20,000 bases of DNA from an uncultured virus (IMG/VR IMGVR_UViG_3300024507_000366). Lineage: Duplodnaviria > Heunggongvirae > Uroviricota > Caudoviricetes. The position numbers and the translations under genes are program-made. The stretch is taken from the IMG/VR virus record IMGVR_UViG_3300024507_000366, one strand, 5' to 3'. Under the pieces are notes generated by a model. That model was not told the DNA's origin, did no database searches, and saw nothing but the letters and a program-made list of their open reading frames with translations. Positions within the stretch are counted from its first letter, which is position 1. The number at the start of each line of letters is the position of its first letter. Shown in pieces: positions 4,731 through 20,000 of this stretch.

Positions 4731-4736
4731 GTAAAT

Positions 4737-4813
4737 GGCCGTATAGACCAACCGGCAGAGTCAAGTCACTTAAAATGACTGTAGTGTGGGTTCGAATCCC
4801 TCTGCGGCTACCA
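4737..4813 (+). tRNA. tRNA-Leu(UAA) with short variable loop
   Basis: GGCCGTA/TGCGGCT acceptor, AGTCA-CTTAAAA-TGACT anticodon arm, GTGGG-TTCGAAT-CCCTC T arm, ACCA end. Confidence 0.88.
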
Positions 4814-4820
4814 ATTTAAA

Positions 4821-4997: not shown

Positions 4998-4998
4998 A

Positions 4999-5337: not shown

Positions 5338-5338
5338 A

Positions 5339-5761: not shown

Positions 5762-6297
5762 AGAAATCATTTTTTATCATTTTTATTCTCGCAGTTTTTT
5801 TTTGCTTCTCCGCGCCAGCCTGCTCACGAAAATCGGATGAGCCTCCGATGTTCAATGGGCAAACCATCAACAAGTTAAGCTTGATGGTTGCTTACAACAT
5901 CCCGACAACCGGCAAAGCTTCTTATGCTGTCGTCAATCGGGACTGGGTGCTGTGGGCCTACGACGATTACCGCAAATGGTTAGGCAGCGGAGCTTATGGA
6001 GTAACAAAGTGGGACGACCGATCCCAATGCACCCTGTTTGCAACCGCTTTTGAAGTTTACTGCCAGCTTGCGTTCTTCCGCCAAGGCTTTCACAGCGACA
6101 TTCAAGCGCAGGGAATTGCAGTTGGAACTGTATGGTATTTCACGTTCACTCCTATGCAGCAAGGAATGTTGGAAGGTCACGCAGTCAATCAGATCATCAC
6201 GCAGAATGGGATGGAATACTTTGAGCCACAAACCGGCAAGTTTATCCAGTTGACAGAGGGTCAAAGACTGTCAACTTACTTCTCAAAATTCGACTAA
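5758..6297 (+). CDS. exported papain/transglutaminase-like protein (MOA C-terminal-like, Cys-His-Glu)
   Basis: Signal or lipoprotein-like N-terminus; SQCTLFA, GHAVN and YFEPQ motifs. Confidence 0.6.
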   Translation: MKKSFFIIFILAVFFCFSAPACSRKSDEPPMFNGQTINKLSLMVAYNIPTTGKASYAVVNRDWVLWAYDDYRKWLGSGAYGVTKWDDRSQCTLFATAFEVYCQLAFFRQGFHSDIQAQGIAVGTVWYFTFTPMQQGMLEGHAVNQIITQNGMEYFEPQTGKFIQLTEGQRLSTYFSKFD

Positions 6298-6941
6298 TGA
6301 AAATCGCTGTCCTGTCTGACACTCACGGCAAACACTTTGGCATCCAAGTGCCAGACGCCGACACGGTTATTCACTGCGGAGACTTTTGTGATTTCGGGCA
6401 AATCAAAGACGCAATGTCGTTCTTGAATTGGTTTAACTGCTTACCGCACAAGAATAAAATTTTTATTGCTGGCAATCACGACCTTGCCTTTGAGAAAGAA
6501 AGCTTCATCAAAAACTTACTAAAGCACGATTATCCGCAGTTAACTTACCTTGAAGACAGTGGGTGCGAAATCGAAGGAGTAAAGTTTTGGGGCTCGCCAG
6601 TTTCCCCACGTTTCTTCAACTGGGCGTTTAACCGGACTCGCGGCGCGGAGATCCGCCGCCATTGGGATATGATCCCTGCGGATACAGACGTTTTGATCAC
6701 GCACGGTCCACCTTATCAAATTCTTGATCGTGCTCCAAGGGGAAACTCTTACGATCACGTTGGGTGCAGAGACTTGCTCGACAAGATAGTTCTACTGAGT
6801 CCGAAACTTCATTTGTTTGGGCACATCCACGCTGATGGAGGTAAAAGCTTTGTGAGCGGAATGAACACAATTTTCTGTAACGCTTCCATCGTGAGCGAGG
6901 ACTACAGCGTCACCAATCAGCCGCAAGTTTTTATTATTTAA
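6297..6941 (+). CDS. calcineurin-like metallophosphoesterase (MPPED/239FB-like)
   Basis: SDTHG, HCGDF, AGNHD, THGPP and FGHIH motifs. Confidence 0.92.
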   Translation: MKIAVLSDTHGKHFGIQVPDADTVIHCGDFCDFGQIKDAMSFLNWFNCLPHKNKIFIAGNHDLAFEKESFIKNLLKHDYPQLTYLEDSGCEIEGVKFWGSPVSPRFFNWAFNRTRGAEIRRHWDMIPADTDVLITHGPPYQILDRAPRGNSYDHVGCRDLLDKIVLLSPKLHLFGHIHADGGKSFVSGMNTIFCNASIVSEDYSVTNQPQVFII

Positions 6942-6943
6942 AA

Positions 6944-7126
6944 ATGAACCAGTTCAAAGAGGCGTCGATGGAAGATGTCAACGCTGCTGCTGTTGCTGCA
7001 ATTTCTTGCCTTGAACAGCTAAAAGTGCTTGACAGTAACGATCCGAAGCACGATGCTTTGTTCAACCAATTAACCGCAGTGATGGAAAAGTATTTCAATT
7101 ATCCCGATTACCAAGGCTTCCAATGA
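6944..7126 (+). CDS. hypothetical protein
   Basis: 60-aa ORF, ATGA-coupled to the next gene. Confidence 0.6.
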   Translation: MNQFKEASMEDVNAAAVAAISCLEQLKVLDSNDPKHDALFNQLTAVMEKYFNYPDYQGFQ

Positions 7127-7611
7127 AAACCAAGAAAGATATCCAACACTACAAAGACGAAGCTGAACGCTATCGTTACCTTTTTGGCTGGCGTTTCAAT
7201 GGCGAATATGCAGTCGCTGCTCGCGCAGCCGCAAAGGAAGACCAGCGTTTGTATCGTAAGGTTGGCAAGAAGTTCGTCCCCGTGAATGACCCCTATGCTT
7301 ACGATGGTCTTCGCAATGGCTTCTGGCTAATCCAAGTCAAAGATGGCTCCACTTCCATCCGTCAAGAGATCTATCCCGACAAGGCTTCGCTCCACGCCGC
7401 TGCTCGTTTGATGGAGGACAAGCTGGTACAGATTATTTGTAAGGCTTGTGAAGCTCGCCCTAACCAGACAGAGCTTTCTCCCCAAGAAAAGAAAGATTGG
7501 GAGGCTTTTATGAAGAAGCACGGGCAGTCTTTCAACACTCTATCTTATCCTTCGATACAAGAAAGTGCCGAAAAGATTGTGAAGACTCTGATTGGGGAGG
7601 AACAGCCGTGA
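7123..7611 (+). CDS. hypothetical protein
   Basis: 162-aa ORF; ends EEQP with GTGA overlap into the next gene. Confidence 0.75.
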   Translation: MKTKKDIQHYKDEAERYRYLFGWRFNGEYAVAARAAAKEDQRLYRKVGKKFVPVNDPYAYDGLRNGFWLIQVKDGSTSIRQEIYPDKASLHAAARLMEDKLVQIICKACEARPNQTELSPQEKKDWEAFMKKHGQSFNTLSYPSIQESAEKIVKTLIGEEQP

Positions 7612-7886
7612 GCGATACACCGAGAACGGATGCTGCGGTTGCCCTAACTAGTCAGCACCGTTATGACGATAGTTTCGGTGATCCAATCTTCGGTTGGGTT
7701 ACTGCCAATTTTGCTCGCCAACTCGAGCGCGAGATCGCTAGACTGCGAGCCGACCAACTGCGCATTGATTGGCTGGAGCTCTCTCCCGATAAAAGGCTAA
7801 ACGCCGTGCACGACCTGTGGTGCAATAACGGAGACATCAGTAATGTTCGCCAAGCCATCGACGCCGCACGAAAGGAGCAGCCGTGA
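7608..7886 (+). CDS. MSDTPRTD-family modular phage protein
   Basis: GTG start after GGAGG; SDTPRTD…FARQLEREIARLR…DWL…AIDAARKEQP. Confidence 0.75.
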   Translation: MSDTPRTDAAVALTSQHRYDDSFGDPIFGWVTANFARQLEREIARLRADQLRIDWLELSPDKRLNAVHDLWCNNGDISNVRQAIDAARKEQP

Positions 7887-7995
7887 GCGACACACCTAAA
7901 ACTGACGCTAAAGCCATCTTCTTTGGCTGGAATCCAGAAGAGGGAGAAGAGTTCGTGCAGGCTGATTTTGCCCGCGAGTTGGAGCGCGAGAACGC
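7725..7995 (+). repeat. ~270-bp ungapped imperfect direct repeat, copy 1 (copy 2 at 9035-9305)
   Basis: Offset 1310 bp; 49-nt perfect core 7854-7902 = 9164-9212; both ends fall at ERExA codons. Confidence 0.9.
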
Positions 7996-8146
7996 CGCCC
8001 TACGGGAAAGACTTCAAATGATTGCCGATGCTTATGCGTTAGACGCAAATGAATTGCGTGATATCGCACGCGCCGTTACGAGTAAGCAAACAGGAGACGA
8101 CGCTATTATGCGTCAGCACCTAACTGAAGGAGGAACACCGACATGA
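7883..8146 (+). CDS. MSDTPKTD-family modular phage protein
   Basis: GTGA overlap; FARELERENAALR; ends GDDAIMRQHLTEGGTPT. Confidence 0.75.
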   Translation: MSDTPKTDAKAIFFGWNPEEGEEFVQADFARELERENAALRERLQMIADAYALDANELRDIARAVTSKQTGDDAIMRQHLTEGGTPT

Positions 8147-8406
8147 ATACGACTGATACACCACACACTCAAAAAGTACAAGTAGTTAATCTTGGCAAGC
8201 CTTGGCATCACGCTTATAAAGAGTTATATTCTCACGCTTGTGAGCAGGAAAAGGAAATCGCCAAACTGCGTGAAGCATTGAAAGAAATCAGCACCGAAGC
8301 TCATTGTATTGCCAAAGCAGGTCCATTGAATACACCAACATTACAAGATGCTTGGGGTAAGTTTATGGCAATAGATGCTATGGCAACTAAAGCATTATCA
8401 AAATGA
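8143..8406 (+). CDS. modular phage protein (TDTPHT…EKEIAKLRE)
   Basis: ATGA overlap, GGAGG upstream, related junction motif. Confidence 0.7.
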   Translation: MNTTDTPHTQKVQVVNLGKPWHHAYKELYSHACEQEKEIAKLREALKEISTEAHCIAKAGPLNTPTLQDAWGKFMAIDAMATKALSK

Positions 8407-8819
8407 ACTACGACGAAATGATACAGCAACATTATAACGATCTTTTGGCTGGAGCCGAAGATTGGGCAATCCATCAAGTTATTGATAAAGTGTTGGAAAT
8501 GGAGAATGAAAACGCAAAACTGCATGAAGAAAAGCAGTGGTTACGAGAAACTTTATCCGATGAGGCTAAAAATTATTTCGATATGGCACAAGTTAGATTG
8601 CCAGAACTATTGCGAGAAAATGCCGCGTTGCGGGAGGCTGCACTGTTTCTTCTAAACGAGATTGATGGTGAAGCGTTCCATCAAGTAGGTCAAGCAAATG
8701 GAGAGATGCTTTACGAGGGTGTTAGCAAACTACGAGATGTCATTAACGCGACAAAAAAAGAATCGGGAGACGACGCTATTATGCGTCAGCATCTCAACCA
8801 AGGAGGAACGCCAACGTGA
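8403..8819 (+). CDS. modular coiled-coil phage protein
   Basis: LRENAALRE; C-terminus GDDAIMRQHLNQGGTPT shared with 7883..8146. Confidence 0.75.
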   Translation: MNYDEMIQQHYNDLLAGAEDWAIHQVIDKVLEMENENAKLHEEKQWLRETLSDEAKNYFDMAQVRLPELLRENAALREAALFLLNEIDGEAFHQVGQANGEMLYEGVSKLRDVINATKKESGDDAIMRQHLNQGGTPT

Positions 8820-9196
8820 GCGACCACCTGATCGCCGAGGCTAATCGACACGCCAAAGCATTACATCAAATGACACCCCCAACGACAAAACCAAACCAGC
8901 GCGACATCGACTGGTATATCGCAGAGTGCATCGATCTCAGAAGGCAACTGGAGTACGAGATTGAGGCAAAACGCAATCACCTGCGGATTGCGTGCGAGGA
9001 AATCAATGACCTCAAAGTTAAGACCGGTTTTTACGAGAGGGAAATTGCTCGGCTGCGGGCGGATAAGGAGCGGCTGGATTGGCTCGCGCAATTGCCAGAC
9101 AAACGCTTGTCTAGGGTTCACGATCTTTGGGTCAACGATGGAGACATTGCAGACGTGCGCGCCGCCATCGACGCCGCACGAAAGGAGCAGCCGTGA
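8816..9196 (+). CDS. modular phage protein
   Basis: EREIARLR…DWL…AIDAARKEQP C-half shared with 7608..7886. Confidence 0.75.
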   Translation: MSDHLIAEANRHAKALHQMTPPTTKPNQRDIDWYIAECIDLRRQLEYEIEAKRNHLRIACEEINDLKVKTGFYEREIARLRADKERLDWLAQLPDKRLSRVHDLWVNDGDIADVRAAIDAARKEQP

Positions 9197-9305
9197 GCGA
9201 CACACCTAAAACCGACGCTAAAGCACAATTTTTCGGATTCAATCCAGACGAGGGCGAAGAATTCGTGCAGGCTGATTTTGCCCGCGAACTGGAGCGCGAG
9301 AACGC
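9035..9305 (+). repeat. direct repeat copy 2 of 7725-7995
   Basis: Same alignment as copy 1. Confidence 0.9.
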
Positions 9306-9531
9306 TGCGCTGCGGCAAGCCTTGGAAGATATGCCGACTTGCAGGTGCGGCTTGAGTACCGACGAGCAATGTGCCTTGTCGGTCCAGAACGCCACACTGC
9401 GGACCGCAGCTGTCGAGGTATGCGCGCTTGCGCGCGTTTGGGTAACTGTTTGGGGAGACAAGCTCTCACCCGACACCGTAGCAAATTTTGCGGAGTTGGA
9501 AAAACAAATCTTAAAAAAGGCACAGCCGTGA
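9193..9531 (+). CDS. MSDTPKTD-family modular phage protein
   Basis: N-half nearly identical to 7883..8146, different C-half. Confidence 0.75.
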   Translation: MSDTPKTDAKAQFFGFNPDEGEEFVQADFARELERENAALRQALEDMPTCRCGLSTDEQCALSVQNATLRTAAVEVCALARVWVTVWGDKLSPDTVANFAELEKQILKKAQP

Positions 9532-9875
9532 GCAAGTCAAAACAATACTTCTGTTTCCTCCAATACTTCGCCACAGGCGAGGGACTGACTGAAAATATGG
9601 CTTTTGTCGATGCCAAATCAGAAAAAGAAGCTATCAAAATCTTTTGCAGGGACTATGTTTTAAGCAAAAACACTTGCACTTTGGAGGAAGAGGTATCTTT
9701 TTTCTCTGATGTAGTTTGCATCTACGATCTAAGCAAAAAGGAAAGCCGCGCCAACGCTCAAGAAATTTTAAATAATTTTTTTCGTCCCGAAGTCACTAGA
9801 AGCATCTTGAAGGCGAGGATGAAGAAAAACGCGATATTCGACTTCAACTTCCGATTCTATGCGAATTACAGCTAA
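9528..9875 (+). CDS. hypothetical protein
   Basis: GTG start in CAGCCGTGAGC junction. Confidence 0.7.
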   Translation: MSKSKQYFCFLQYFATGEGLTENMAFVDAKSEKEAIKIFCRDYVLSKNTCTLEEEVSFFSDVVCIYDLSKKESRANAQEILNNFFRPEVTRSILKARMKKNAIFDFNFRFYANYS

Positions 9876-9879
9876 ACCT

Positions 9880-10098
9880 ATGAAAGTCACCGTCACATTT
9901 AAACTGCCCGAGGACAAATGGGACTACAACTGCTTCAAAGCTTCCGCTGAGATGTCGAGCGTCATCTTGGACTTGGACAGTCTTCTTCGCTCTGTTTCCA
10001 AGCACGGTCATAACATCACATCAGTTACCGAGTTCGCCCACTTTATCCGGTCAGAGTACCTCTCTGAGGTTGTAAGCGATCTTCACAAAGAGAGTTAA
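9880..10098 (+). CDS. conserved phage hypothetical protein (MKVTVTFKLPED…)
   Basis: ATG 9880 just after upstream stop; FxLPED motif. Confidence 0.7.
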   Translation: MKVTVTFKLPEDKWDYNCFKASAEMSSVILDLDSLLRSVSKHGHNITSVTEFAHFIRSEYLSEVVSDLHKES

Positions 10099-10109
10099 AA
10101 TTAATTAAA

Positions 10110-10352
10110 ATGGGCTGCGATAAATATTACCTCCAAGGGTTCAATTACCCAATTATGGTAAGCGAAGGGCAAGATGAGATCAGTTGCCTTTGCACCTTCC
10201 CAGATAGCGGGGTATGCAAAGAACGGCTTCGTTCCTTGGCTTATCTTGGCGCAGCAGTCGTTCTGATGTCCCGTGACCAGCTACCGCACGGGTTTTTGCC
10301 TGCTTGCTTGCCCGAAGATGTCAGGAAGGAGATTGACCAACATTTCGTTTAA
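10110..10352 (+). CDS. hypothetical protein
   Basis: 80-aa ORF after AT-rich leader. Confidence 0.55.
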   Translation: MGCDKYYLQGFNYPIMVSEGQDEISCLCTFPDSGVCKERLRSLAYLGAAVVLMSRDQLPHGFLPACLPEDVRKEIDQHFV

Positions 10353-10380
10353 AACAAAGATTTTAAGGCTACTATAAGAT

Positions 10381-10917
10381 ATGAATCCCGACGTTAATTA
10401 TAAATCTTACGTGAACGAGACAGGCTTGTTCATCGATAACTGGCAGAATCCAGAAACAGTTTCTGCTTACGATGACGTAATGAAGTTCTCCAACTGCACA
10501 GATGTTACCGTATCTGGGGTGCTGATTATGGGCGGCAGAGAGGACTGTATTGACGCCGTAAGAGGGTCGAACTACTTCTTCACCGACCTTTCGCTTGTTC
10601 CCTTGTGGAATGGAGTAACGATTAAAGGTAGCATAGAGAACGCTACATTCAAGAATATCTCATTTGAGACTACGGGTAAGGACTACTGCATTGAACTGGG
10701 TCAATTCGATAACTATTGGACTCCAGGGCGCAAGCCTACCCGTGGAGTTAAACTCGAAAACGTACACAGTGTTTCGGGGGCCAAAGTGACCGTAAGGGTC
10801 TGGGACGCTGAAATGCCAACCATTATCAACTCTCCTAGCGTTGTCGTTAAGAAGATTCCAAAGTTCATTTGGTATCCTTACTTTTTGTTCAGACGCTGGC
10901 AAATTAAAAAGAATTAA
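10381..10917 (+). CDS. short right-handed beta-helix (pectin-lyase-like) protein
   Basis: Repeating strands CTDVTVSGV, GGREDCIDA, NATFKNISF, GVKLENV. Confidence 0.6.
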   Translation: MNPDVNYKSYVNETGLFIDNWQNPETVSAYDDVMKFSNCTDVTVSGVLIMGGREDCIDAVRGSNYFFTDLSLVPLWNGVTIKGSIENATFKNISFETTGKDYCIELGQFDNYWTPGRKPTRGVKLENVHSVSGAKVTVRVWDAEMPTIINSPSVVVKKIPKFIWYPYFLFRRWQIKKN

Positions 10918-10922
10918 AATTT

Positions 10923-11090
10923 ATGGCACAAGAAACAATGACACCAGAGATAGCTTTGGGCAATCTGATTACAGTTTACAAGCAAAGTCGCTTAACGCCC
11001 GAAGAACACGACATTATGAAGGCGAGCATCCAAACGCTCATTGACCTCATCCAGAAGGACAAGGAAGGAAAAGCGCCCAAAAAAGGGTAA
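10923..11090 (+). CDS. small hypothetical protein (MAQETMTPEIALGNL…)
   Basis: 55-aa ORF read manually, ATG 5 nt after upstream stop. Confidence 0.65.
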   Translation: MAQETMTPEIALGNLITVYKQSRLTPEEHDIMKASIQTLIDLIQKDKEGKAPKKG

Positions 11091-11117
11091 TTCAGTAAGG
11101 TTTTTAACAACAAATTG

Positions 11118-11198
11118 CTGTAATTAGTCTTGACGAGAGCGCCGAGTTTGTTCCAAATGAGACAGATTCGGCGCTTTCTATTAAATTACAGGCTTTTT
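11118..11198 (+). terminator. long intergenic hairpin, possible terminator
   Basis: CTGTAATT/AATTACAG enclosing AGCGCCGAGTTTGT/ACAGATTCGGCGCT, followed by a T-run. Confidence 0.5.
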
Positions 11199-11227
11199 TC
11201 GAATTAAAAATCAAAAAGGGGGAGAAG

Positions 11228-11518
11228 ATGACAGAAAATACACCAATTCCAGCAGCAATCGGGGTGCTTTTAGCGGGCGTTTTCCTTGGAGTTTTGGGGT
11301 CAAAAATCTACAGAAAATGGCGCAAGAAAAAACAGCACGAACAAGAGGTTTTTCATCAGGCACATTTGGATGAAATTGAGGCCAAAAAACTACACGATAA
11401 ATTGGTCGATTCTAGAGTAGAAATCGGCCTAAAACCACCCAAGGCTTTCAAGACAAAACGGAAGCCCCAAGACACCAAGATTCTCGGCAAAAAAAGCCTC
11501 AAGAAAAACCTTGACTAA
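11228..11518 (+). CDS. membrane-anchored basic protein
   Basis: N-terminal TM helix followed by a Lys-rich tail. Confidence 0.7.
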   Translation: MTENTPIPAAIGVLLAGVFLGVLGSKIYRKWRKKKQHEQEVFHQAHLDEIEAKKLHDKLVDSRVEIGLKPPKAFKTKRKPQDTKILGKKSLKKNLD

Positions 11519-11730
11519 ACCATCCCACTCCCACATAAGTGGGATGATAACGTAACACCCTATAACCACTATACCAGTAACATAGATAATGAATACAGAT
11601 AAGTATAGAGAATATAGAGAAAAGAGAGAGGTTAATGGGAATTATAAATGGGAAATGGGGAATTTTACCCATCACGGCTCTATTTTTTATTAATTTTAAT
11701 TCAATTTGGAATTTTAATTCGCCCTTTTCT

Positions 11731-11979
11731 ATGCGTTATCACCTATTCACAGCTATTAGGTATCTCATTACGACAGTTTTGTTCATCCTAGTAGGGGTTC
11801 CTGTATCAATTTTGTTTTCCCTTGTCGGAGGCGTGCTCTGCACCGCGAGCCTGTTCGTGGACTTGAACAACACGTTCCTAACCAACGTGTTAGGTAAGCT
11901 GACGGAGTTCCAGAACAGCTATTTCCTGCACAAAAACATCAGATCGGTAATGGAAAAAATGAACTCCGGGCAGGGGTAA
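11731..11979 (+). CDS. membrane protein (start uncertain, 11635 or 11731)
   Basis: Long hydrophobic segment YLITTVLFILVGVPVSILFSLVGGVL. Confidence 0.6.
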   Translation: MRYHLFTAIRYLITTVLFILVGVPVSILFSLVGGVLCTASLFVDLNNTFLTNVLGKLTEFQNSYFLHKNIRSVMEKMNSGQG

Positions 11980-11990
11980 AATACAACTTT

Positions 11991-12416
11991 ATGTACGAAT
12001 ACATTATCAAGTTAAACAGAGTAATTGATGGCGACACTATCGTAGCTGATATCGACCTTGGCTTCGATGTGTGGCTAAAAGATCAGTATATTCGCCTATA
12101 TGGAGTTGACACACCAGAACTGAAGAGTAAAGATAAGGCCCACCGAGCAGCCGGGCTGCTAGCTAAGACCAAGCTCACTGAGTTTCTCTCTTCTGCTCAA
12201 GGGCTCTCAATCAAGAGCGAGAATTTTGAACCAGAGGACGACAAATATGGGAGGATCTTAGGCACAATAATCACTGACAGGGGCGAAAACGTGAATCACT
12301 ATCTCCTAAATAACAAGTACGGTGTCGAGTACAGTGGGCAAAATAAAGGAGAAATAATGAAGGCTCACGCTGCAAATATAGAGTTCTTAACAACGAACGG
12401 GCTACTTCAATTATGA
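11991..12416 (+). CDS. thermonuclease (SNase-like) family protein
   Basis: RVIDGDTI, IRLYGVDTPE and DKYGRILG motifs. Confidence 0.92.
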   Translation: MYEYIIKLNRVIDGDTIVADIDLGFDVWLKDQYIRLYGVDTPELKSKDKAHRAAGLLAKTKLTEFLSSAQGLSIKSENFEPEDDKYGRILGTIITDRGENVNHYLLNNKYGVEYSGQNKGEIMKAHAANIEFLTTNGLLQL

Positions 12417-12928
12417 ATGTAAAAGCCCTAAATATAGCTCTTTGTTTACTGTTGGCAGGATGCTCCTCCTTCTATAAGGATAAGAACGGAGAAAATATTA
12501 ATAAAAATGCGCCGATCTTTGTAAGCCCAAAGACGAACGCGATTCCCGCTAATAAGCCAGCTGAACCCAAAGTTGAATACAAGGGCGAGAAATATATCTT
12601 GGTCAAAGAGACCGATTTAAATTTATTATTAAATCGAAAGGTGAGCGAGCCAGCGCCAAATAAGGGTGCGGTTGCGGCGCCCGCCGCCACTGGGGAAAAT
12701 TCCCCACCCCTCGCCAAAATTGGGGAAAATTCCCCACCCACCCAATCGAAGCCAGAAATCCTTTCGGTCCCTGTCATCCGCTTGGAGCCAACTGAAGAGA
12801 AAAAGCCTTCCGCTTCCAGCAGCTGGCCGCTCTTCTTTTTGGTTGTGATTGGAGTAGCGGCGCTCTTCGCTACCGCTTGGTATTATCTGTACTATAGGCC
12901 ACACAATCCTCCCCGCCCCACGAATTAA
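12413..12928 (+). CDS. lipoprotein with Pro-rich linker and C-terminal TM helix
   Basis: Lipobox LLAGC; TM WPLFFLVVIGVAALFATAWYYLYY. Confidence 0.75.
   Translation: MNVKALNIALCLLLAGCSSFYKDKNGENINKNAPIFVSPKTNAIPANKPAEPKVEYKGEKYILVKETDLNLLLNRKVSEPAPNKGAVAAPAATGENSPPLAKIGENSPPTQSKPEILSVPVIRLEPTEEKKPSASSSWPLFFLVVIGVAALFATAWYYLYYRPHNPPRPTN
12691..12739 (+). repeat. tandem pair of palindromic TGGGGAAAATTCCCCACCC (30-bp period)
   Basis: 12691-12709 and 12721-12739; the 16-mer recurs inverted at 18192-18207, variant at 11656-11671. Confidence 0.8.
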
Positions 12929-13010
12929 AATTAATTAAAAATGGGGAGTTGGCATAAGAATTGTCCGCCCACCCCCCCGTTTTTTTTTGAAAAAAAGTGC
13001 GCGAGATGGC

Positions 13011-13038
13011 TTGACGGCGGGCGAATCTGTGGTAGAGT
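13011..13038 (+). promoter_or_regulatory. promoter TTGACG-16-(TG)TAGAGT, 8 nt before ATG 13047
   Basis: Motif match; same geometry at several other genes. Confidence 0.65.
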
Positions 13039-13046
13039 GATCGCGT

Positions 13047-13286
13047 ATGAATAACACCACCTCAATCAAACGCGGTCGTGGGCGCCCTGTTGGCTCCACC
13101 TCCTTTGTCAACGTCAGCCTCGCTGACCTCGATCAGTTCATCGGCACCAAGAGCGCGATCCCTGTCTCGCGCGTCTGGCTCCAGAAGATGAACCTCACGG
13201 TCCAGCCGATCACCCGCTCGATCAACGAGGCCAGCGACACCACCGACACCACCCCCAAGGTGGAGTTCAAGATCACCAAGCTCTAA
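13047..13286 (+). CDS. small AT-hook-like DNA-binding protein
   Basis: KRGRGRPVGS motif. Confidence 0.7.
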   Translation: MNNTTSIKRGRGRPVGSTSFVNVSLADLDQFIGTKSAIPVSRVWLQKMNLTVQPITRSINEASDTTDTTPKVEFKITKL

Positions 13287-13301
13287 TTGGAGACTAATCA
13301 A

Positions 13302-14231
13302 ATGTCCCGTTTTGCTGAACTAGTTGGTCAGGCGGATGTCAAGAAGAAGCTCGACTTCTATCTCGACGCCCACGAAAAGAGCCGCAAGTTCCCGTTCCTT
13401 CTCCTCACCGGAGCCAAGGGTATGGGCAAGACCGAGTTCGCCAAGGAGACTGCCCGTGGCCTCAAGGCTGCGGACGGCGCGCCCAAGGCTTTCCTCGAAA
13501 TCAACTGCGGCACGATCAAGAATGCTCAAGTGTTCTTTGAACAGGTGTTTGCTCCAGTGATCCAAGGCAACGAGATCACTGTTCTCTTGGATGAGTGTCA
13601 CGCTCTCCCCAAGGACTTGATGACTGTTCTGCTTTCTGCGTTCAATACGGAGAAGACGGAGATCAAGCAAGTTACTTGGCGCGAGGGTATGTACGAGTTC
13701 AACTTCAAGAAGCAGACGTTTATGCTCGCTACCACCGAGCCTGATCGCCTGTTTGCCCCCTTGAAGGATCGCCTGACTCATATCGATTTCCAGACCTATT
13801 CCGTGTCGGATGTCGCGAAGATTATCCAAAAGATTCTTCCTGATGTTTCGTTCAAGGGCGAGGCTCTGGACCGCATCGCGACCACTGTCCGTGGCAACGC
13901 TCGCTCCTCCGTCCAGCGTGCGAAGCAGATCGAGATGTACTGTGAGACCAAGGCTAAAAAGGATTTCGGTTGCAAGGAGTGGGACGACCTTTGCAGCAAG
14001 ATCGGCATCAACCCCTCTGGTCTTAACAACACCGAAATTCAGATTCTCCGTGCGTTGAAGGATCGTGGCGACTGCTCCCTGAATATGCTGTCAGCTATTA
14101 CGGGAATGAGCCGCTCGTCCCTTCAGCGTGATTCCGAGGTCTTCCTGCTCCAGAAGGGGTTTATGAAGATCGAGGGTCAGCGCAAGCTCACGGTGGCAGG
14201 CGCGAAGGTGTTAGAGCAAGTCAAGGCTTAA
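13302..14231 (+). CDS. ruvB: RuvB-like Holliday junction branch-migration AAA+ ATPase
   Basis: LVGQ, Walker A GAKGMGKT, Walker B LLDECHAL, ATT…PLKDR, RGNAR, C-terminal winged-helix-like region. Confidence 0.85.
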   Translation: MSRFAELVGQADVKKKLDFYLDAHEKSRKFPFLLLTGAKGMGKTEFAKETARGLKAADGAPKAFLEINCGTIKNAQVFFEQVFAPVIQGNEITVLLDECHALPKDLMTVLLSAFNTEKTEIKQVTWREGMYEFNFKKQTFMLATTEPDRLFAPLKDRLTHIDFQTYSVSDVAKIIQKILPDVSFKGEALDRIATTVRGNARSSVQRAKQIEMYCETKAKKDFGCKEWDDLCSKIGINPSGLNNTEIQILRALKDRGDCSLNMLSAITGMSRSSLQRDSEVFLLQKGFMKIEGQRKLTVAGAKVLEQVKA

Positions 14232-14479
14232 CTTCATACCGAGACTGGGCAACCGTGCGTGAGTGGTGGCCCAACAATTTTCCCAGTCAAGTTAGAACAG
14301 CATTCCGCTGAGCCCACAAACAAAACAAAATAGTTAGTAATCAACAGTGGTGGCCCTACGCAAAACACAGGCACGGGTAAAGCCTTAACTTGACTGGGTT
14401 CCTTTTAAATAATAACGAAAGAGAAAGCAAATAATAACAAATAAGTGCGAAATAAATAAAAGCAAGCTCACAAGTGGGA

Positions 14480-14495
14480 TACGTAGTTCTACGTA
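14480..14495. promoter_or_regulatory. palindromic operator-like site TACGTAG-TT-CTACGTA
   Basis: Perfect 7-bp arms; recurs at 19890-19905 and partially at 15767-15779, each just left of the 36-bp repeat. Confidence 0.65.
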
Positions 14496-14496
14496 G

Positions 14497-14532
14497 CCGG
14501 GCCAGGCCCGGTTGTAAAAAAAATGTAAAAAA
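14497..14532 (+). repeat. 36-bp dispersed repeat R1
   Basis: CCGGGCCAGGCCCGG TTGTAAAAAAAATGTAAAAAA. Confidence 0.95.
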
Positions 14533-14591
14533 TGGTTTTCGTGCAAGATTGTTCTCGCGCAGCCACCCCTCTTCTGATCTACTTCTGGCGT

Positions 14592-14810
14592 ATGAAACTA
14601 AAGCGCGTTTGCCAGTTCAACGGGAGGGTCTACGAGATGGACTTCCCCAATATGACCGCGTCGCAGTATTACGACGCCCGTGAGAAGTGGAAGGGTGGCC
14701 TGCTGATTCAGCAGGCGTTTCCCTTCTTGACCGCCGATGAGCGGGAGTTCATTATGACCGGAACGCCCCCGCACGTTTGGAAAGAGATCTTCGCGCAGCA
14801 CGACCTATGA
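14592..14810 (+). CDS. conserved phage hypothetical protein (LIQxAFPxLxADEREFIxTG family)
   Basis: cgtATG start; recognisable phage motif. Confidence 0.8.
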   Translation: MKLKRVCQFNGRVYEMDFPNMTASQYYDAREKWKGGLLIQQAFPFLTADEREFIMTGTPPHVWKEIFAQHDL

Positions 14811-14989
14811 AGCCGATGACCCAACCCACCTACGCTTACTTGCGCGGGTTTCTCGATGCTTACAACATTGGCGCCTATCAATTCGATGCGCGCCGAAGCG
14901 AGTTGACCAGCCCCAACGCTGGAAGCGATTACAAGGCTGGATACGATAAGGGAATGACCTTCTATGCGGATGACAATAATTTAGATTAA
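14807..14989 (+). CDS. small hypothetical protein (YxxGY motifs)
   Basis: ATGA overlap; YLRGFLDA and YKAGYDKG. Confidence 0.65.
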   Translation: MKPMTQPTYAYLRGFLDAYNIGAYQFDARRSELTSPNAGSDYKAGYDKGMTFYADDNNLD

Positions 14990-15021
14990 AAAACTGGTGG
15001 GTGGGGTGTTTACCCCAGCCG

Positions 15022-15057
15022 CCCGGCCTGGCCCGGTTGTAAAAAAAATGTAAAAAA
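15022..15057 (+). repeat. 36-bp repeat R2
   Basis: CCCGGCCTGGCCCGG TTGTAAAAAAAATGTAAAAAA. Confidence 0.93.
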
Positions 15058-15087
15058 AGCGCGAACCGAAGTCCGCGCTTGACTCTC

Positions 15088-15375
15088 TCAGATTTGCCCC
15101 AGAAGCACGCTTTCCACGTACTCCTTGCCTTGGGCGAGCGTCGCCTCTGGACAGATATCGCGCACAGCCTTGATCAGGGTGATCTTGTTGGCGATGGGGT
15201 GGCTCTCCCGCGCCTGCCTCTGCGCCTCATCCCAGAGGGTGGTGAGCGCCATCCGCACCTTGGCGCTGTTGAGATCGGCGCCCCTGTCAAAGCTGATTTC
15301 GATTTCGCTATTGCACACGCCCAGCTTGGCGGCGAAGTGGTTGACGATGTCCTCGCGGTCGATGATGACTTTCAT
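15088..15375 (-). CDS. protein with ribosomal L7/L12 C-terminal-like domain
   Basis: NKITLIKAVRDICPEATLAQGKEYVES resembles the bL12 CTD pattern KIxxIKxVRxxxxxxLxEAKxxVE. Confidence 0.6.
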   Translation of the reverse strand: MKVIIDREDIVNHFAAKLGVCNSEIEISFDRGADLNSAKVRMALTTLWDEAQRQARESHPIANKITLIKAVRDICPEATLAQGKEYVESVLLGQI

Positions 15376-15376
15376 A

Positions 15377-15583
15377 TTACAGGATGTTGTGGTTTTGCAG
15401 GAAGGTGACGTATTGGTCGAGCAGGGTTTTCTTGTTCTTGGTGCGCGACCCGATGAGGTAGCGGATTTGCGGGGCAACGCTCTTGCCCGAGGAGTGACGG
15501 AGCCCGAGGGTTTCGAGCTTGAGCGCGCCCTTGAGGGCGAGCAGGCGGTAAGCGAAGATCTTGTCAGGAGTGTCAGCAATCAT
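15377..15583 (-). CDS. conserved small basic phage protein (RLLALKGALKLETLGLRHS)
   Basis: ATG at 15583; stop 1 nt before the next start. Confidence 0.7.
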   Translation of the reverse strand: MIADTPDKIFAYRLLALKGALKLETLGLRHSSGKSVAPQIRYLIGSRTKNKKTLLDQYVTFLQNHNIL

Positions 15584-15787
15584 CTTTTTGTATGGGTTAG
15601 AATTGGAGCCGCGCTGCCTGCCTCCTATGTGGCGGGTGATTAGGGAGTCTTCACGGCTTCGGTTTCTCCCCGTCAGCAAGGGAGAGAATGGAGTTTGCTC
15701 TGCGCTCTGCAACACTTTTCTGCGGACATTTTTCGTGCCAAGCCCTCCCAAAAAGCGTGTCAATGGGTAGAACTACGTATTTTTTGC

Positions 15788-15823
15788 CCAGGCCAGGCCC
15801 GGCTGTAAAAAAATTGTAAAAAA
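15788..15823 (+). repeat. 36-bp repeat R3
   Basis: CCAGGCCAGGCCCGG CTGTAAAAAAATTGTAAAAAA. Confidence 0.92.
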
Positions 15824-15960
15824 TCGCCCATCAGAAGAAAAGTCTCGCCAGCGCGCGCCGTTCGGGCATTCTTCCGCGCTTTTTCGCCCCCCTCCCCCCC
15901 CTCAAAAAAAAGCAAAAAAAGGTTTGCACGCGCGGTCCCGAGCGCCCAACCTCCTAGCGT

Positions 15961-16734
15961 ATGAACTCCATCAACCTCCGCATCTGCGGCTCAGACAATT
16001 CCGAGGTCAGCGTCGCTGAACTCGCCGCCATCAAGTCGCCCGAGAAGACGGCGACCTATCAGCCCATCCCGCACTCTGATCTCGTTTCGATCTTCCGCGA
16101 CAATATGCGCGCGGCGGATTTGACCATCAAGCAGGAACTGCACACGGTTTCCCGCTTCGGTCAGCGTTACTTCGGCCTTTTCGAGATTGACCTCGGCAAG
16201 GCTGGCACCGCTGGCACCGTCGTCGGCTTGCGTAACTCGCACGACAAGAGCTTCCCCGCTGGCATCTGCGCGGGCAACGCTCCTTTCGTTTGCAGCAATC
16301 TCGTTTTCCACAACGAGGTTGTGTTCACCCGTCGCCATACGTCGAACGTGCTGCGCGACTTGCCCCAGATTGTCGGGCGTGCGATTGGTGCCTTGTCCGA
16401 TATGTGGACGAAGCACGAAACCCGCGTCTCGACCTATCAGGGGCGCGAGCTTTCCGATGAGGAGGCTGGCAATCTGATCCTGCGTAGCTATCGGGCCGGT
16501 GCAATCGGCAAGACGATGATCGCGGATGTTCTCGATCAATGGGAGAAGCCCGCGCACGAAGAGTTTGCCCCGCGCAACCTCTGGTCCCTGCACAACGCCT
16601 TCACCGAGGTGTACAAGGGGAACTTGCTTGCGCTCCCCAAGCGCAGCCAAGCCCTGCACTCCATCTTCGATCCGTTCGCGGGTCTGAACCTCACGGTTGA
16701 CATCAAGCCCGAGGTGGAGGTGGCGACGGTCTAA
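15961..16734 (+). CDS. DUF932 family protein
   Basis: TYQPIPH, RYFGL, GLRNSHDKS, FVCSNL, RRHT and NLWSLHNAFTE motifs. Confidence 0.85.
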   Translation: MNSINLRICGSDNSEVSVAELAAIKSPEKTATYQPIPHSDLVSIFRDNMRAADLTIKQELHTVSRFGQRYFGLFEIDLGKAGTAGTVVGLRNSHDKSFPAGICAGNAPFVCSNLVFHNEVVFTRRHTSNVLRDLPQIVGRAIGALSDMWTKHETRVSTYQGRELSDEEAGNLILRSYRAGAIGKTMIADVLDQWEKPAHEEFAPRNLWSLHNAFTEVYKGNLLALPKRSQALHSIFDPFAGLNLTVDIKPEVEVATV

Positions 16735-16740
16735 GCTATC

Positions 16741-16767
16741 GGGGGCGGTGACAGCGCCCCCTTTTTT
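16741..16767 (+). terminator. rho-independent terminator
   Basis: GGGGGCG-GTGACAG-CGCCCCC followed by a T-run, right after the stop. Confidence 0.8.
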
Positions 16768-16834
16768 CCCCTTTGCTATATCAAATTTTGCTTATTGTTC
16801 TGCTATTGTTTATTTTGCTTAGAAAAAAATTGCG

Positions 16835-17128
16835 ATGAATATCCAATCTATCGACTTTCTGAACGAACGCCTGAAGGGTTCGGAACTTTATGTAAACAAG
16901 ACGCCCGAGGAGGCTCAAGCTATGTTTGATCAGGAGGTGCAAGTTGTCACTCCGCGCATCAACGGCTGGCTGACGCGCAGCGAAAGGTGGAAAGTCGCCT
17001 TCTATGCTCAGAAGCTGCCGCGCCTTACTGAACGCAAGAATTGTTCCGTTCACCTTTACAACATCGCGGTGAAACTCAACATCTCACTCGCTACAGTAAA
17101 CAACTATAGATACTATAGCGGCTGGTGA
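16835..17128 (+). CDS. protein with C-terminal HTH
   Basis: LYNIAVKLNISLATVNNYR. Confidence 0.65.
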   Translation: MNIQSIDFLNERLKGSELYVNKTPEEAQAMFDQEVQVVTPRINGWLTRSERWKVAFYAQKLPRLTERKNCSVHLYNIAVKLNISLATVNNYRYYSGW

Positions 17129-17169
17129 TATAGCAAGTCCCGCCCACTAGGGGGAAACCCCTAGGGGGG

Positions 17170-17205
17170 CCGGGCCAGGCCCGGTTGTAAAAAATTTGTA
17201 AAAAA
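17170..17205 (+). repeat. 36-bp repeat R4
   Basis: CCGGGCCAGGCCCGG TTGTAAAAAATTTGTAAAAAA, preceded by hairpin CTAGGGG-GAAA-CCCCTAG. Confidence 0.95.
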
Positions 17206-17333
17206 TCCCCCTCCCTCAGAAAAGCCTTGACGCCCCCGCCGCCCGCCGCGCCGCCGCCGTGTCAAGCAAAGAAATTGGGGCCATTGCATTTTTTTTGTTT
17301 ATTTATCTCCGCGCGCGCCTATTCTTTCCCCGT

Positions 17334-18029
17334 ATGAAACTTAACTTGCTCTCCTGCAATTCCGATGCGAAAACCTCCAAGGGCGAGGCTTTCGGGTGGC
17401 TGACGGCAATCCTTTACCTTGCGCCCGCGCGCCTTGCGGGCCGTGGCGAGGTTTGCAAGTGGCGCTCAAAAAACTGCACGCTTGCGTGCCTTTACACCGC
17501 CGGACGCGGTCAAATGAATTCCGTGCAAGCTGCGCGCGTGCGCCGGACGCAACTGTTTTTCGATGATTTCGCCACCTTCAAGGCTCTTTTGCTTGCCGAT
17601 ATCGCCGCTTTCGTCAAGTACGCAATCGCGAACGGATTGAAGCCTTGCGTGCGTTTGAACGGAACGAGTGACATTTCGTGGGAGCGCCTCGGCATTTTCG
17701 ACAAGTTCCCTTCCGTGCAATTCTACGATTACACAAAGTCACCTATCCGCGCGCTTCAATTTGCCAAGGGCGCGATGCCTTCAAATTATCACTTGACTTT
17801 CTCGCGCAGCGAGGAAAACGAGAGTCAGGCGCTCGATGTCCTTTGCAACGGCGGTAACGTGGCGGCGGTCTTCCTTTCTTCAGTCTTCCCGAAAACTTGG
17901 AACGGTTTCCAAGTGGTGGACGGTGACCGGCACGACTTGCGCTTTCTTGACGGCGCGAACAAACTGGTTGCCCTAAAGGCAAAGGGCAAAGCAAAGCAAG
18001 ACGTTTCCGGCTTTGTCATCCGTGCGTGA
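17334..18029 (+). CDS. phage Gp88-like protein (Cys-rich, radical-SAM-like fold suspected)
   Basis: ILYLAP, VC…SKNCTLACLYTAGRG, VRLNGTSDI, FYDYTK, NYHLTFS, DGDRHDLRFLD, LKAKG. Confidence 0.75.
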   Translation: MKLNLLSCNSDAKTSKGEAFGWLTAILYLAPARLAGRGEVCKWRSKNCTLACLYTAGRGQMNSVQAARVRRTQLFFDDFATFKALLLADIAAFVKYAIANGLKPCVRLNGTSDISWERLGIFDKFPSVQFYDYTKSPIRALQFAKGAMPSNYHLTFSRSEENESQALDVLCNGGNVAAVFLSSVFPKTWNGFQVVDGDRHDLRFLDGANKLVALKAKGKAKQDVSGFVIRA

Positions 18030-18150
18030 CGCAAACTTTTTCTTTTCTGTTCTACTGTTTCTCCTAGTAGTAGCTTTTCTACTGACAAAGCGAAGTTTGA
18101 AGAAATAGCGCCGCCGAGAGCCCCCGCCCCTTGTCAAGGGGTGGGGACGA

Positions 18151-18185
18151 TTTTTACATAATTTTTACAACCGGGCCAGGCCCGG
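18151..18185 (-). repeat. 36-bp repeat R5 (inverted)
   Basis: Minus strand reads CCGGGCCTGGCCCGG TTGTAAAAATTATGTAAAAA. Confidence 0.95.
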
Positions 18186-18219
18186 CCAAAGTGGGGAATT
18201 TTCCCCACCCTGCCGCCCC

Positions 18220-18390
18220 TTAACTTACTTCAAAAGGCAATTCGGTTTGATAAGTCTCCCACTTAGCTTCCGCCTCGTCTTTATCGGTATTTTCAAGGTC
18301 AAGGTCAATGATCTCAACCTCTATGTCAACAGAGGAGCGGATGCCTTGAATGGCGCCGCCCTCAACCCAGATTGCAATTTTGTTTTTCAT
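18220..18390 (-). CDS. small acidic phage protein (MKNKIAIWVEGGAIQGI…EVEIIDLD)
   Basis: 56-aa ORF read manually; ATGA overlap with the hydrolase stop. Confidence 0.7.
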   Translation of the reverse strand: MKNKIAIWVEGGAIQGIRSSVDIEVEIIDLDLENTDKDEAEAKWETYQTELPFEVS

Positions 18391-18830
18391 CGGTAAAAAA
18401 CGTGATTTTTTATCTTAACAGTCTTTTTGAGCTTGCTTGCCCAACTGGGGGACACCGTTCCGTTGTGGTAATGCGTGGCGCCTTTCGTGTGGTTCGTGAG
18501 CTTGCCCCGCGCAATCTCCAGAGCAAGCGCCCAATTCTTGTGACGCTTTGCCTTTTCAATTCCCGTGCCGACAGCAAGACCGTTCCAACAAGAGAATTGC
18601 TTGGGGGCGAGGCAAACGATCATCTCGCCCTTGCCCTTGGCACGATTGGCGATCACTTCGCGGACCGCCTCCATACCTTCGCGCCCCTCGCCGCCCGCCT
18701 CCATAATGAGGGTAGCGGCGACCACTTCAGTCTGGGAGACTGTAACCGTGACGCTCTGCACTTGCGGCAACGAAGCCGCCCCAGAAAAGGTCGCTGTCAG
18801 AAGCAGGAGGGAAACCATTTTGTTTTGCAT
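18387..18830 (-). CDS. cell wall hydrolase (SleB/Hydrolase_2 family) with signal peptide
   Basis: TLIMEAGGEGREGMEAVREVIANR, PKQFSCWN, TKGATHYH, PSWA, IKNHVFYR. Confidence 0.9.
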   Translation of the reverse strand: MQNKMVSLLLLTATFSGAASLPQVQSVTVTVSQTEVVAATLIMEAGGEGREGMEAVREVIANRAKGKGEMIVCLAPKQFSCWNGLAVGTGIEKAKRHKNWALALEIARGKLTNHTKGATHYHNGTVSPSWASKLKKTVKIKNHVFYR

Positions 18831-18899
18831 ATTCCTGAACTTTATCAGTGTTCCAATTGAACGCAAGGATTAATTTCGCAATTTTGAAGACATTCATAC

Positions 18900-19199
18900 T
18901 TAGACGGTGATGCCCTTATGGGTGAAGTTACTGATCTTTTCGAGGTTGAAACTCTTGTAAGCGTGGCCCGTGGGCGTGTCCTCGTTGTTCGTCTTGACGG
19001 TCAAGAACTCGTTGCCAGCCTTGGAAACCACAATCGCTTTGCTTTCGTGCTCACCCCAAACGCGGTGGCCGAAAGGCTTGTAGCCGATCACGCCGTTGCG
19101 GCGCTTAGTCGCGCCGTCCTTGTCAGGGTAGTCAAACGACACGATAGCGGCGCCGTTGGCAACGATCTTCTCGATGATGGAACGTAGGTTGTTATTCAT
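18900..19199 (-). CDS. SH3/WYL-like beta-barrel phage protein
   Basis: VSFDYPDKDGATKRR…YKSFNLEKI pattern. Confidence 0.6.
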   Translation of the reverse strand: MNNNLRSIIEKIVANGAAIVSFDYPDKDGATKRRNGVIGYKPFGHRVWGEHESKAIVVSKAGNEFLTVKTNNEDTPTGHAYKSFNLEKISNFTHKGITV

Positions 19200-19232
19200 A
19201 CGGGAAACAAGATACCACAGGCCAAGCGCCGA

Positions 19233-19769
19233 TCAAGCGTTTTCCTCATCTTCTTGCGGCTCCCACCCAAAGTGTTCGCGCACAAATTCTTGCCAATCTT
19301 TTTTGTTCGATTCTTCCAAGGTCAAGCTCACGGTCTCGATAGTTTCGCCCTCATTGAAGATTTCATAGCCCGCAAAACCGTTGCCTTCCTCGGCGTAGAT
19401 GATTTGGAAGTTCGCGGGAAACATCGCAGAAAGCTTTTTGATTGCAATGGTGGGCGGGCTCCAAGCCGAATCAAAAGAAAAAAACATCATATTTTCATTG
19501 CTCGACACCTCGTCAAACTCGGCTTCGATGTCCCATTTGGTGCCCCAATTATGCACGTTCCAGTCGTACCAGTTGTCGTAACCGTACTTCACGACAAAGG
19601 CGATGCTTTCCTCTTCTGTTCCCTTGAACGGAGCTTGACGCTCGATCAATTCGTTGGGCGTGGGGGCAATCTTGGCAAGGGTCAACTCGACATCTTCACC
19701 CAGCCACTCACGGAAGGCGGTCAAGTCTTTTCCCCAGACGAGCAATTTGTTTTGGCACCAGTTTGGCAT
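19233..19769 (-). CDS. YubB/DUF1281-like ferredoxin-fold protein
   Basis: MPNWCQNKL, NWYDWNVHNWGTKWD, FDSAWSPP, YAEEGNGFAG. Confidence 0.85.
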   Translation of the reverse strand: MPNWCQNKLLVWGKDLTAFREWLGEDVELTLAKIAPTPNELIERQAPFKGTEEESIAFVVKYGYDNWYDWNVHNWGTKWDIEAEFDEVSSNENMMFFSFDSAWSPPTIAIKKLSAMFPANFQIIYAEEGNGFAGYEIFNEGETIETVSLTLEESNKKDWQEFVREHFGWEPQEDEENA

Positions 19770-19889
19770 AGGTCGGCAAACTGACAGACTGTGGGCGCTG
19801 TGCAAGCTTTTTTTTGCTAAAAAATTAGCAAATCAGCAAATACGAAATAGACAAATAAAAGTTTGGGGGGGGCAGGGGGGGGAAGTCAA

Positions 19890-19905
19890 TACGTAGAACT
19901 ACGTA
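19890..19905. promoter_or_regulatory. palindromic operator-like site TACGTAG-AA-CTACGTA
   Basis: Perfect arms; abuts a minus-strand TTGAC. Confidence 0.65.
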
Positions 19906-19909
19906 GTGG

Positions 19910-19945
19910 CCGGGCCAGGCCCGGTTGTAAAAAAATGGTAAAAAA
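19910..19945 (+). repeat. 36-bp repeat R6
   Basis: CCGGGCCAGGCCCGG TTGTAAAAAAATGGTAAAAAA. Confidence 0.95.
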
Positions 19946-20000
19946 AAAGGGGGGCTTGCGCCCCCCCGCTCACACCCCGTCGTCCTCCCAAGGGTTGTAG

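Follow-up and report, generated by a model that had tools for sequence, protein, structure and literature searches.

The right-hand end of a 20,000-nucleotide stretch of DNA from an uncultured virus of the Caudoviricetes (IMG/VR record IMGVR_UViG_3300024507_000366; the whole stretch is called the window below) raises the question of why one short palindrome should recur there six times between genes. A first-pass annotation, made from the letters alone, had described the repeats as borders of gene cassettes, and had proposed an integron- or shufflon-like recombination site with an insulator or protein-loading signal as the alternative. The analysis described here found that the repeat lies at the boundaries of short units of small genes, that it is conserved and clustered in related phages, that its flanking arm serves as the T-tail of terminator-like hairpins, and that the units it bounds are reshuffled between relatives. 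The reading favoured, with moderate confidence, is that the repeat forms the conserved centre of a composite junction where one short early transcription unit meets the next, comparable to the promoter-early stem-loop (PeSL) of T4-type phages.

A conserved repeat confined to one block

The core of the repeat is a 15-bp all-G/C palindrome, CCGGGCCWGGCCCGG. With up to two mismatches allowed it is matched six times in the window, at 14497, 15022, 15788, 17170, 18171 and 19910, and not once in positions 1-14400; the chance expectation is 0.01, and six matches were reached in none of 200 shuffles. An arm on one side of each core reads TTGTAAAAA(A)-N3-(T)GTAAAAA. The arm pattern TGTAAAAA-N4-GTAAAAA, at the same tolerance, also gave six matches (0.13 expected), all of them adjoining cores, and A-tract arms are present at 6/6 window copies. 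The copy at 18151-18185 is inverted. Pattern scans and shuffles therefore bear out the earlier description of six copies with two GTAAAAA boxes 11 bp apart, none of them in the first 14.4 kb and the one at 18151 inverted.

Scans of virus and metagenome contigs yielded 133 distinct instances, comprising 88 full arms and 45 weaker second arms. Mean pairwise identity is 94.0% across the core and 92.0% across the core and first box, and it falls to 29-31% in flanks 35-60 nt off, while genes compared between lineages show 66-82% DNA identity. The element is a sharply bounded conserved block, and the spacing of its GTAAAA boxes is 11 bp in 88/88 distinct copies. It is clustered in relatives: in each of six virus records the cores (3-8 per record) form a single block, and on a metagenome contig of 146,241 bp all eight exact core matches lie within 5331-11996. 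Identity is 98.4% between copies that occupy the same junction in different contigs (n=32) and 88.6% between those of one contig (n=142). Since positional counterparts are more alike than genome-mates the copies are not being homogenised, and concerted evolution was rejected.

Other origins were also considered. In the collection of papers searched, none has the 15-mer core in either form. The sole match to a known RNA family in Rfam, HgcC, scored 22.9 bits against a gathering score of 50 and lies inside a gene, off the element. A host origin was rejected because one genome from each of 185,579 species gave nine scattered single matches against about 17 estimated, by our own calculation, to occur by chance.

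Anatomy of the junctions

Most copies in relatives are double-armed, with one arm abutting the core and the other offset by 5-7 nt. Among the 88 distinct copies, 32 have a second arm plus TACGTA boxes, 26 have a hairpin on both sides and the remaining 30 fall into nine smaller classes. On 21 contigs of relatives the abutting arm faces the 3' end of a gene in 49/68 cases and the offset second arm faces a 5' end in 27/33, with gene calls that come from a crude in-house caller.

Each copy in the window has a single arm, and the armless side carries a third part. At three copies this is a pair of TACGTA boxes 10 bp apart (at 14480, 15764 and 19890) and at the other three an abutting hairpin whose sequence varies (at 14996, 17147 and 18191). 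Copy 1 (14480-14532, plus orientation) is made up of TACGTA boxes at 14480-14495, the core at 14497-14511 and an arm at 14512-14532 that faces the start of the gene m1a. In copy 2 (14996-15080, plus) a hairpin at 14996-15019 is followed by a core with one mismatch (15022-15036) and an arm (15037-15057), and the arm is the T-tail of a terminator-like hairpin on the minus strand at 15057-15080. Copy 3 (15764-15823, plus), located between divergent units, has TACGTA-type boxes at 15764-15779, a CCAGG variant of the core at 15788-15802 and an arm at 15803-15823. The hairpin, core and arm of copy 4 (17147-17205, plus) occupy 17147-17164, 17170-17184 and 17185-17205, with the arm facing the GP88 start. 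The inverted copy 5 (18122-18208, minus) begins with the terminator-like hairpin of GP88 (18122-18146), whose T-tail is the arm at 18151-18170, and continues with the core (18171-18185) and a hairpin (18191-18208). Copy 6 (19890-19967, plus) consists of TACGTA boxes at 19890-19905, the core at 19910-19924 and an arm at 19925-19948, which again forms the T-tail of a minus-strand terminator-like hairpin, at 19948-19967.

Folding of the core in its context predicts a hairpin in 7/8 contexts and only a weak one at the variant copy 3. The junctions thus have a G/C-rich stem-loop in intergenic DNA beside an AT-rich stretch, as PeSLs do. One of the abutting hairpins, TGGGGAAAATTCCCCA, occurs three times in the window (12691-12707, 12721-12737 and 18191-18208), and in another core-bearing lineage, called the second lineage below, it abuts 3/8 cores.

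The units and their probable transcription signals

Between the copies lie five units of 0.5-1.7 kb with orientations +, -, +, +, -. This is the arrangement given by the first-pass annotation, with the correction that its second module consists of two minus-strand genes, at 15088-15375 and 15379-15583. Unit 1 (14532-14989, plus) holds m1a (phrog_20898), which ends at 14810, and m1b, which ends at 14989; the m1a open reading frame runs from 14532 and its likelier start is the ATG at 14591. In unit 2 (15088-15583, minus) m2a (15379-15583, phrog_19182) is followed by g15 (15088-15375), and the stop of the one and the start of the other are 1 nt apart. Unit 3 (15961-17128, plus) comprises a DUF932 protein (15961-16734) and m3b (16835-17128), and the gap between them contains a canonical terminator-like hairpin with a T-run at 16741-16761. 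Unit 4 (17259-18029, plus) is a single GP88-family protein (PF17338, E 3.4e-46). Unit 5 (18220-19805, minus) contains, in order of transcription, a DUF1281_C protein (19233-19805), p99 (18900-19199), a SleB-type cell-wall hydrolase (18387-18866) and s56 (18220-18390). The Pfam matches of the DUF932 and DUF1281_C proteins (E 5.6e-8 and 1.2e-13 respectively) uphold the assignments made earlier. Cargo of this kind, with DUF932, DUF1281/Api92-like and GP88 proteins and many unknown ones, is an early gene set of the sort where anti-defence functions are being looked for.

Three of the four best terminator-like sites in 12900-20000 have the arm as their T-tail, namely those at copies 2 (minus strand), 5 (plus) and 6 (minus), and the predicted folds agree with this. 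The remaining three arms of the window face gene starts. Before start codons in the relatives there are promoter-like motifs, made up of a conserved TTGAC(A), A-rich stretches and CATTCT or TATTCT boxes, and from their conservation we infer the promoters of the units.

A further box, TTGGCAC-N5-WTGT, was noticed 16 nt beyond the TTGACA in promoter-side flanks, with 25 occurrences in 162 kb of relatives against 1.2 expected; in the window it is found at 15724-15741 on the minus strand. Such boxes were considered as sigma-54 promoters (TGGCAC-N5-TTGC), for which the spacing fits, but in the window's lineage 25/25 boxes matched by TGGCAC-N5-WTG[TC] finish with TGT instead of TGC. The box of the second lineage forms GTGCCAA...TTGGCAC inverted repeats, and two TTGC versions stand 6-7 nt before a core.

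RNA and DNA evidence came from assembled contigs of three metatranscriptomes and one DNA run mapped on the window. A caveat that must be applied to all of it is that the contigs were built from 31-letter words and may break at repeats, that uncovered parts count for nothing, and that the contig ends are weak hints only. RNA contigs begin at 15976-15990, just past the DUF932 start codon at 15961, and stop at 17126-17135, ahead of copy 4, and one minus-strand piece ends at 15040, within the T-tail of copy 2. There is no RNA depth in the bin 17166-17402 in any run and next to none in 15744-15980, and no listed RNA piece lies on copies 3, 4 and 6, neither of which amounts to evidence in contigs of this kind. 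The RNA of the RuvB-like gene to the left of the array was about 10 times deeper than that of the array (contigs; 13141-14394). In two runs its contigs end at 14394 with sequencing adapter directly after, which suggests a defined RNA end at 14394, about 100 nt before copy 1 and inside a non-coding spacer of 250 nt.

Reshuffling of the units

In relatives the cargo genes of the array recur in a different order and orientation, and units bounded by the element are flipped or swapped. Between the window's lineage and three other lineages the units of m1a and of DUF932-m3b are inverted, s56, p99, m2a and g15 are placed in other units in relatives, and a further lineage has yet another unit order. 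In four close relatives colinearity with the nearest record is lost exactly at the edge of one core, and there the distal gene is absent or replaced. Across all pairs 68/258 homology breakpoints fell within 75 nt of a core against 30.9 expected, an enrichment of about twofold, although the breakpoints counted are not independent of one another and an alignment may also stop in intergenic DNA without any recombination. The idea that gene order and orientation change at the repeats thus held for the flipped and swapped units and for the enrichment, but not for the roughly three quarters of breakpoints that lie elsewhere, and the association of rearrangement with the element is a partial one.

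No recombinase is visible among the open reading frames of the window, as had been noted at first pass, and profiles of tyrosine and serine recombinases found one in 0/5 related records (222 kb, with about a quarter or more of the genome outside them). The same profiles found a tyrosine recombinase (PF00589) in 14/14 control genomes and a serine recombinase in 12/14. Neither an inversion nor a circle junction was seen in the contigs of the one DNA run, which are colinear with the window and from which rare forms drop out. The DNA contig breaks at copy 6. In a DNA contig of 151 nt and low depth, an arm is linked to the terminator of copy 6 with 63 other letters between them, for which a strain variant is a likelier explanation than recombination. 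A RuvB homologue beside the array and an endonuclease VII are encoded by the phage, which fits with ordinary homologous recombination, and repeat-assisted homologous exchange is regarded as one contributor to the mosaicism.

Persistence of the core and the words the genome avoids

The second lineage has a RuvB-like protein 83% identical to that of the window, directly before its array, and eight exact cores. Neither TGTAAAAA arms nor TACGTA boxes are present in it, and the cores are accompanied instead by CTATATAG boxes, by GTGGAACATTT repeats and by TTGACA at a distance of 1-8 nt. The 15-bp sequence is kept while the boxes that surround it are exchanged.

The core is, in addition, built from words that the genome otherwise avoids, namely CCWGG, CCGG and GGCC. 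CCWGG occurs eight times in the window, seven times in the six cores and once elsewhere, against first-order Markov expectations of 19.9 for the left region and 9.5 for the array without its cores, or about 29 in all. GGCC is found 16 times on the left and eight times in the array (40.6 and 30.3 expected), and CCGG 14 and six times (37.2 and 28.7 expected), while GCGC and GGGG are not depleted. When palindromes were ranked by depletion in three sets, CCWGG came first or second and CCGG within the top ten in all of them, and both words are depleted in the second lineage also. The four best terminator hairpins of the array use G-runs and GCGC instead of the avoided words. Because it is made of such words the core is retained against a strong compositional trend.

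Two other words are scarce. CATG occurs twice in the 20 kb of the window against about 68 expected, and CGATCG not at all against 9.6 expected (window and nearest record together). CATG is less strongly depleted in two sister lineages and not depleted in the second lineage; its avoidance is specific to the lineage, as would be expected if it followed host restriction. Avoidance of palindromes is an established escape from restriction (reviewed in PMC8829019).

The composition of the core suggests that an enzyme or factor of the restriction/modification type may read it. The core might serve the early anti-host genes as a switch that senses methylation; alternatively it might be protected, or open to deliberate cleavage, and so start recombination precisely at the borders of units. 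That it is a purpose-built recognition site, made of words which the phage otherwise purges, is a tentative suggestion and rather an unlikely one. Profiles of the methyltransferases PF00145 and PF01555 each found 0/5 in the related records. The construction of a core from the genome's most avoided restriction-type words is a concrete and testable oddity.

Proposed function of the junction and alternative explanations

Read along the direction of transcription, a complete junction would run from a gene end through a hairpin and T-rich arm, which together would form an intrinsic terminator, to the core, and from there through an A-rich arm, TACGTA boxes with TTGAC, further boxes and a promoter-like region to the next gene. 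Where units converge or diverge, as they do in the window, only the matching halves of the junction would be present. The palindrome itself would most likely be an insulating stem-loop or a protein site that separates neighbouring units. Because the same 40-60 bp or so recur every 0.5-1.7 kb, homologous recombination between copies could flip, drop or swap units with no need for a dedicated recombinase, and would explain part of the reshuffling seen between related phages.

Several observations weigh against this reading, in addition to the limits on the gene calls and the breakpoint counts given above. The core alone is not a canonical terminator, since what comes next is TTGT with an A-run behind it on one strand and boxes or hairpins on the other; it is absent from the list produced by the terminator scan, and in the second lineage no T-run follows it. 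A scan with the sigma-70 consensus found five sites against 3.5 expected, with no strong site adjoining the copies and none directly before the first gene of a unit, and the earlier statement that most modules carry their own promoter found no support there. One RNA contig (14456-14991) spans copy 1 and another (14607-15248) bridges copy 2, so that these copies are not absolute barriers, unless DNA was present in the libraries. As many as 190/258 homology breakpoints are more than 75 nt from a core, and many adjacencies between genes inside units are broken too. Finally the core shows no compensatory changes, and its commonest variant, CCGGGCCAGGCCGGG, breaks the stem and yet is retained at one junction in several relatives, for which reason a site read as sequence fits better than a plain hairpin.

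This last point leads directly to the proposal that the core is chiefly the binding site of a dedicated phage or host protein, such as a regulator, a roadblock insulator or an upstream activating site, with phased A-tracts that would bend the DNA towards a nearby promoter and with terminator and promoter parts that merely surround the site. Such a site would account for a core that is nearly invariant and varies without regard to its stem, for the invariant 11-bp spacing of the boxes, for the exact cores of the second lineage, where arms and TACGTA boxes have been swapped for CTATATAG boxes and other repeats, and for the retention of CCWGG, CCGG and GGCC. A candidate binding protein was not found, and the proposal is compatible with the junction reading rather than exclusive of it, and makes a strong supplement to it; that a protein site is the chief role of the core is possible, if on balance doubtful. 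The insulator or protein-loading signal that was at first named only as an alternative is close to the best reading. An element acting at the RNA level has also to be considered, in which the T-arm, core and A-arm of read-through RNA fold into a long hairpin that is cut, as by an enzyme of the RNase III type, or that stabilises message ends. Double-armed copies are near-palindromes of about 60 nt, the core hairpin is predicted in all but one of the contexts folded (weakly at copy 3), and one RNA contig ends at 18178, the centre of core 5. That contig, however, has 19 unexplained extra letters at the same end, the second arm has an offset of 5-7 nt, the long stem cannot form at the window's copies with their one arm, compensatory changes are missing from the core and complementary arms are absent in the second lineage, which leaves this explanation only a small chance.

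The integron- or shufflon-like cassette system of the first-pass annotation has in its favour the symmetric core with directional accessory boxes, the differences in unit order and orientation among relatives, and the loss of colinearity exactly at a core edge in four of them. It is now considered very unlikely. Neither the window nor the five records (222 kb) yielded a tyrosine or serine recombinase, the units stand in both orientations with promoter- and terminator-like flanks, most breakpoints are away from the core, and the contigs of the DNA run, in which rare forms drop out, have no alternative junction at the cores. Moreover the retention of locus-specific variants between genomes, with orthologous copies 98.4% alike against 88.6% within a genome, argues against frequent exchange between copies. 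The element could also be viewed as a miniature mobile repeat of the MITE or REP kind, multiplied within the region, since its block is discrete and sharp-edged and has inverted-repeat arms. All copies are nevertheless in one block of about 7 kb and always at unit junctions, they are orthologous between genomes, and the survey of 185,579 species gave fewer matches than chance would, all of which make a mobile repeat extremely unlikely.

The source phage and the region left of the array

The phage comes from river or freshwater, to judge from the labels (riverine or freshwater metagenome) of the RNA and DNA runs that contain the window's stretch. Its closest record is a virus contig of 52 kb with a CheckV completeness of 36%, which has the six copies of the window and two further ones past the window's right end, eight in all. 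A DNA search of 50,697 phage records for cultured relatives gave no match, and the best protein match of its terminase, to Bacillus phage proteins, is at 27% identity.

Directly upstream of the array in every lineage examined is the gene for the RuvB-like AAA+ protein (13287-14231, plus strand). The protein aligns end to end with RuvB structures, and because of this alignment a role as sigma-54 activator was rejected. To the left of the array there are genes for HNH endonuclease, endonuclease VII and four tRNAs, together with strong Shine-Dalgarno sites. The tRNA genes (Arg-TCT, Ile-TAT, Lys-TTT and Leu-TAA, at 2332-4813) all read codons ending in A or T, and interspersed among them are the HNH endonuclease, a small helix-turn-helix (HTH) protein and endonuclease VII. 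The array differs in its higher G+C and in gene starts of the form cgtATGaa without a Shine-Dalgarno sequence. Those at the first genes of the plus-strand units are at 14588-14593, 15958-15963 and 17332-17337, whereas genes of the left region have AAGGAGG, and the messages of the plus-strand units may have very short leaders or none. A different, AT-rich repeat, similar to TTAAAATTAATTAAAA, stands between genes of the AT-richer left region, at 67, 10092, 10901, 12489 and 12922, and may be the promoter type of that region. Small tandem paralogous genes occupy 7598-9318, where 203 nt at 7806-8008 recur at 9116-9318 with 82% identity, and further repeats are common to the gene-start regions of these paralogues.

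Comparison with known systems

In the host-takeover module of Bacillus phage SPO1 many small early genes form short operons that run both ways, and every operon has a strong promoter and terminator of its own. The module resembles the present array as a block of small early genes in short units of either orientation, but is not known to have a shared palindromic junction element. Integron attC and shufflon sfx sites likewise delimit gene-sized segments whose order or orientation changes, and they need an adjacent dedicated recombinase and act on cassettes that lack promoters. The present array is unlike an integron in that PF00589 was found in 0/5 records and in that its units run +, -, +, +, - with terminator-like sites between them, and unlike a shufflon in that no recombinase was found in the five records and its repeats are intergenic, not inside the alternative ends of one gene. 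The Correia/NEMIS repeats of Neisseria are small intergenic inverted repeats that supply promoter or terminator parts and fold into RNA hairpins, and they are mobile and dispersed genome-wide. The element described here shares with them its size, its intergenic position, its inverted-repeat form, its predicted terminator and promoter parts and its hairpin folding; it differs in being confined to one block and orthologous between genomes.

The closest known kind is the PeSL promoter-terminator cassette of the T4-type phages. PeSLs combine an AT-rich stretch with a sigma-70 promoter and a G/C stem-loop and are found in plastic and hyperplastic regions, their promoter and terminator activity and mini-circles have been demonstrated, and they mediate swaps (Arbiol et al. 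2010, PMC2839356; Comeau et al. 2014, PMC4122927). The present element resembles them in being short, composite and intergenic and in having an AT-rich stretch, a promoter (here a predicted one) and a G/C-rich stem-loop. Both are clustered in plastic regions rich in small genes of unknown function, and both bound units that are gained, lost and swapped between related phages by homologous recombination, a mechanism which here we infer. There are also differences. What is conserved in our case is a nearly invariant palindrome of 15 bp flanked by phased A-tract arms, and not the promoter; the junction has two sides, hence the units in both orientations, there are extra boxes (the TACGTA pairs and TTGGCAC), and the core is built from short palindromes that are otherwise avoided. 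The phage group is moreover an unrelated one without a close cultured relative, as the low identity of its terminase (27% at best) indicates, and the activities of PeSLs have been demonstrated where the present element is known from its sequence.

If the junction reading is correct, promoter-terminator cassettes that organise and reshuffle early accessory genes, so far documented in T4-type phages, would extend to an unrelated group of uncultured freshwater phages, in the form of a two-sided and unusually rigid hub whose sequence survives the exchange of the boxes around it. What is new here is the persistence of the core in a second lineage with different boxes, and a core composed of the very words that these genomes avoid.

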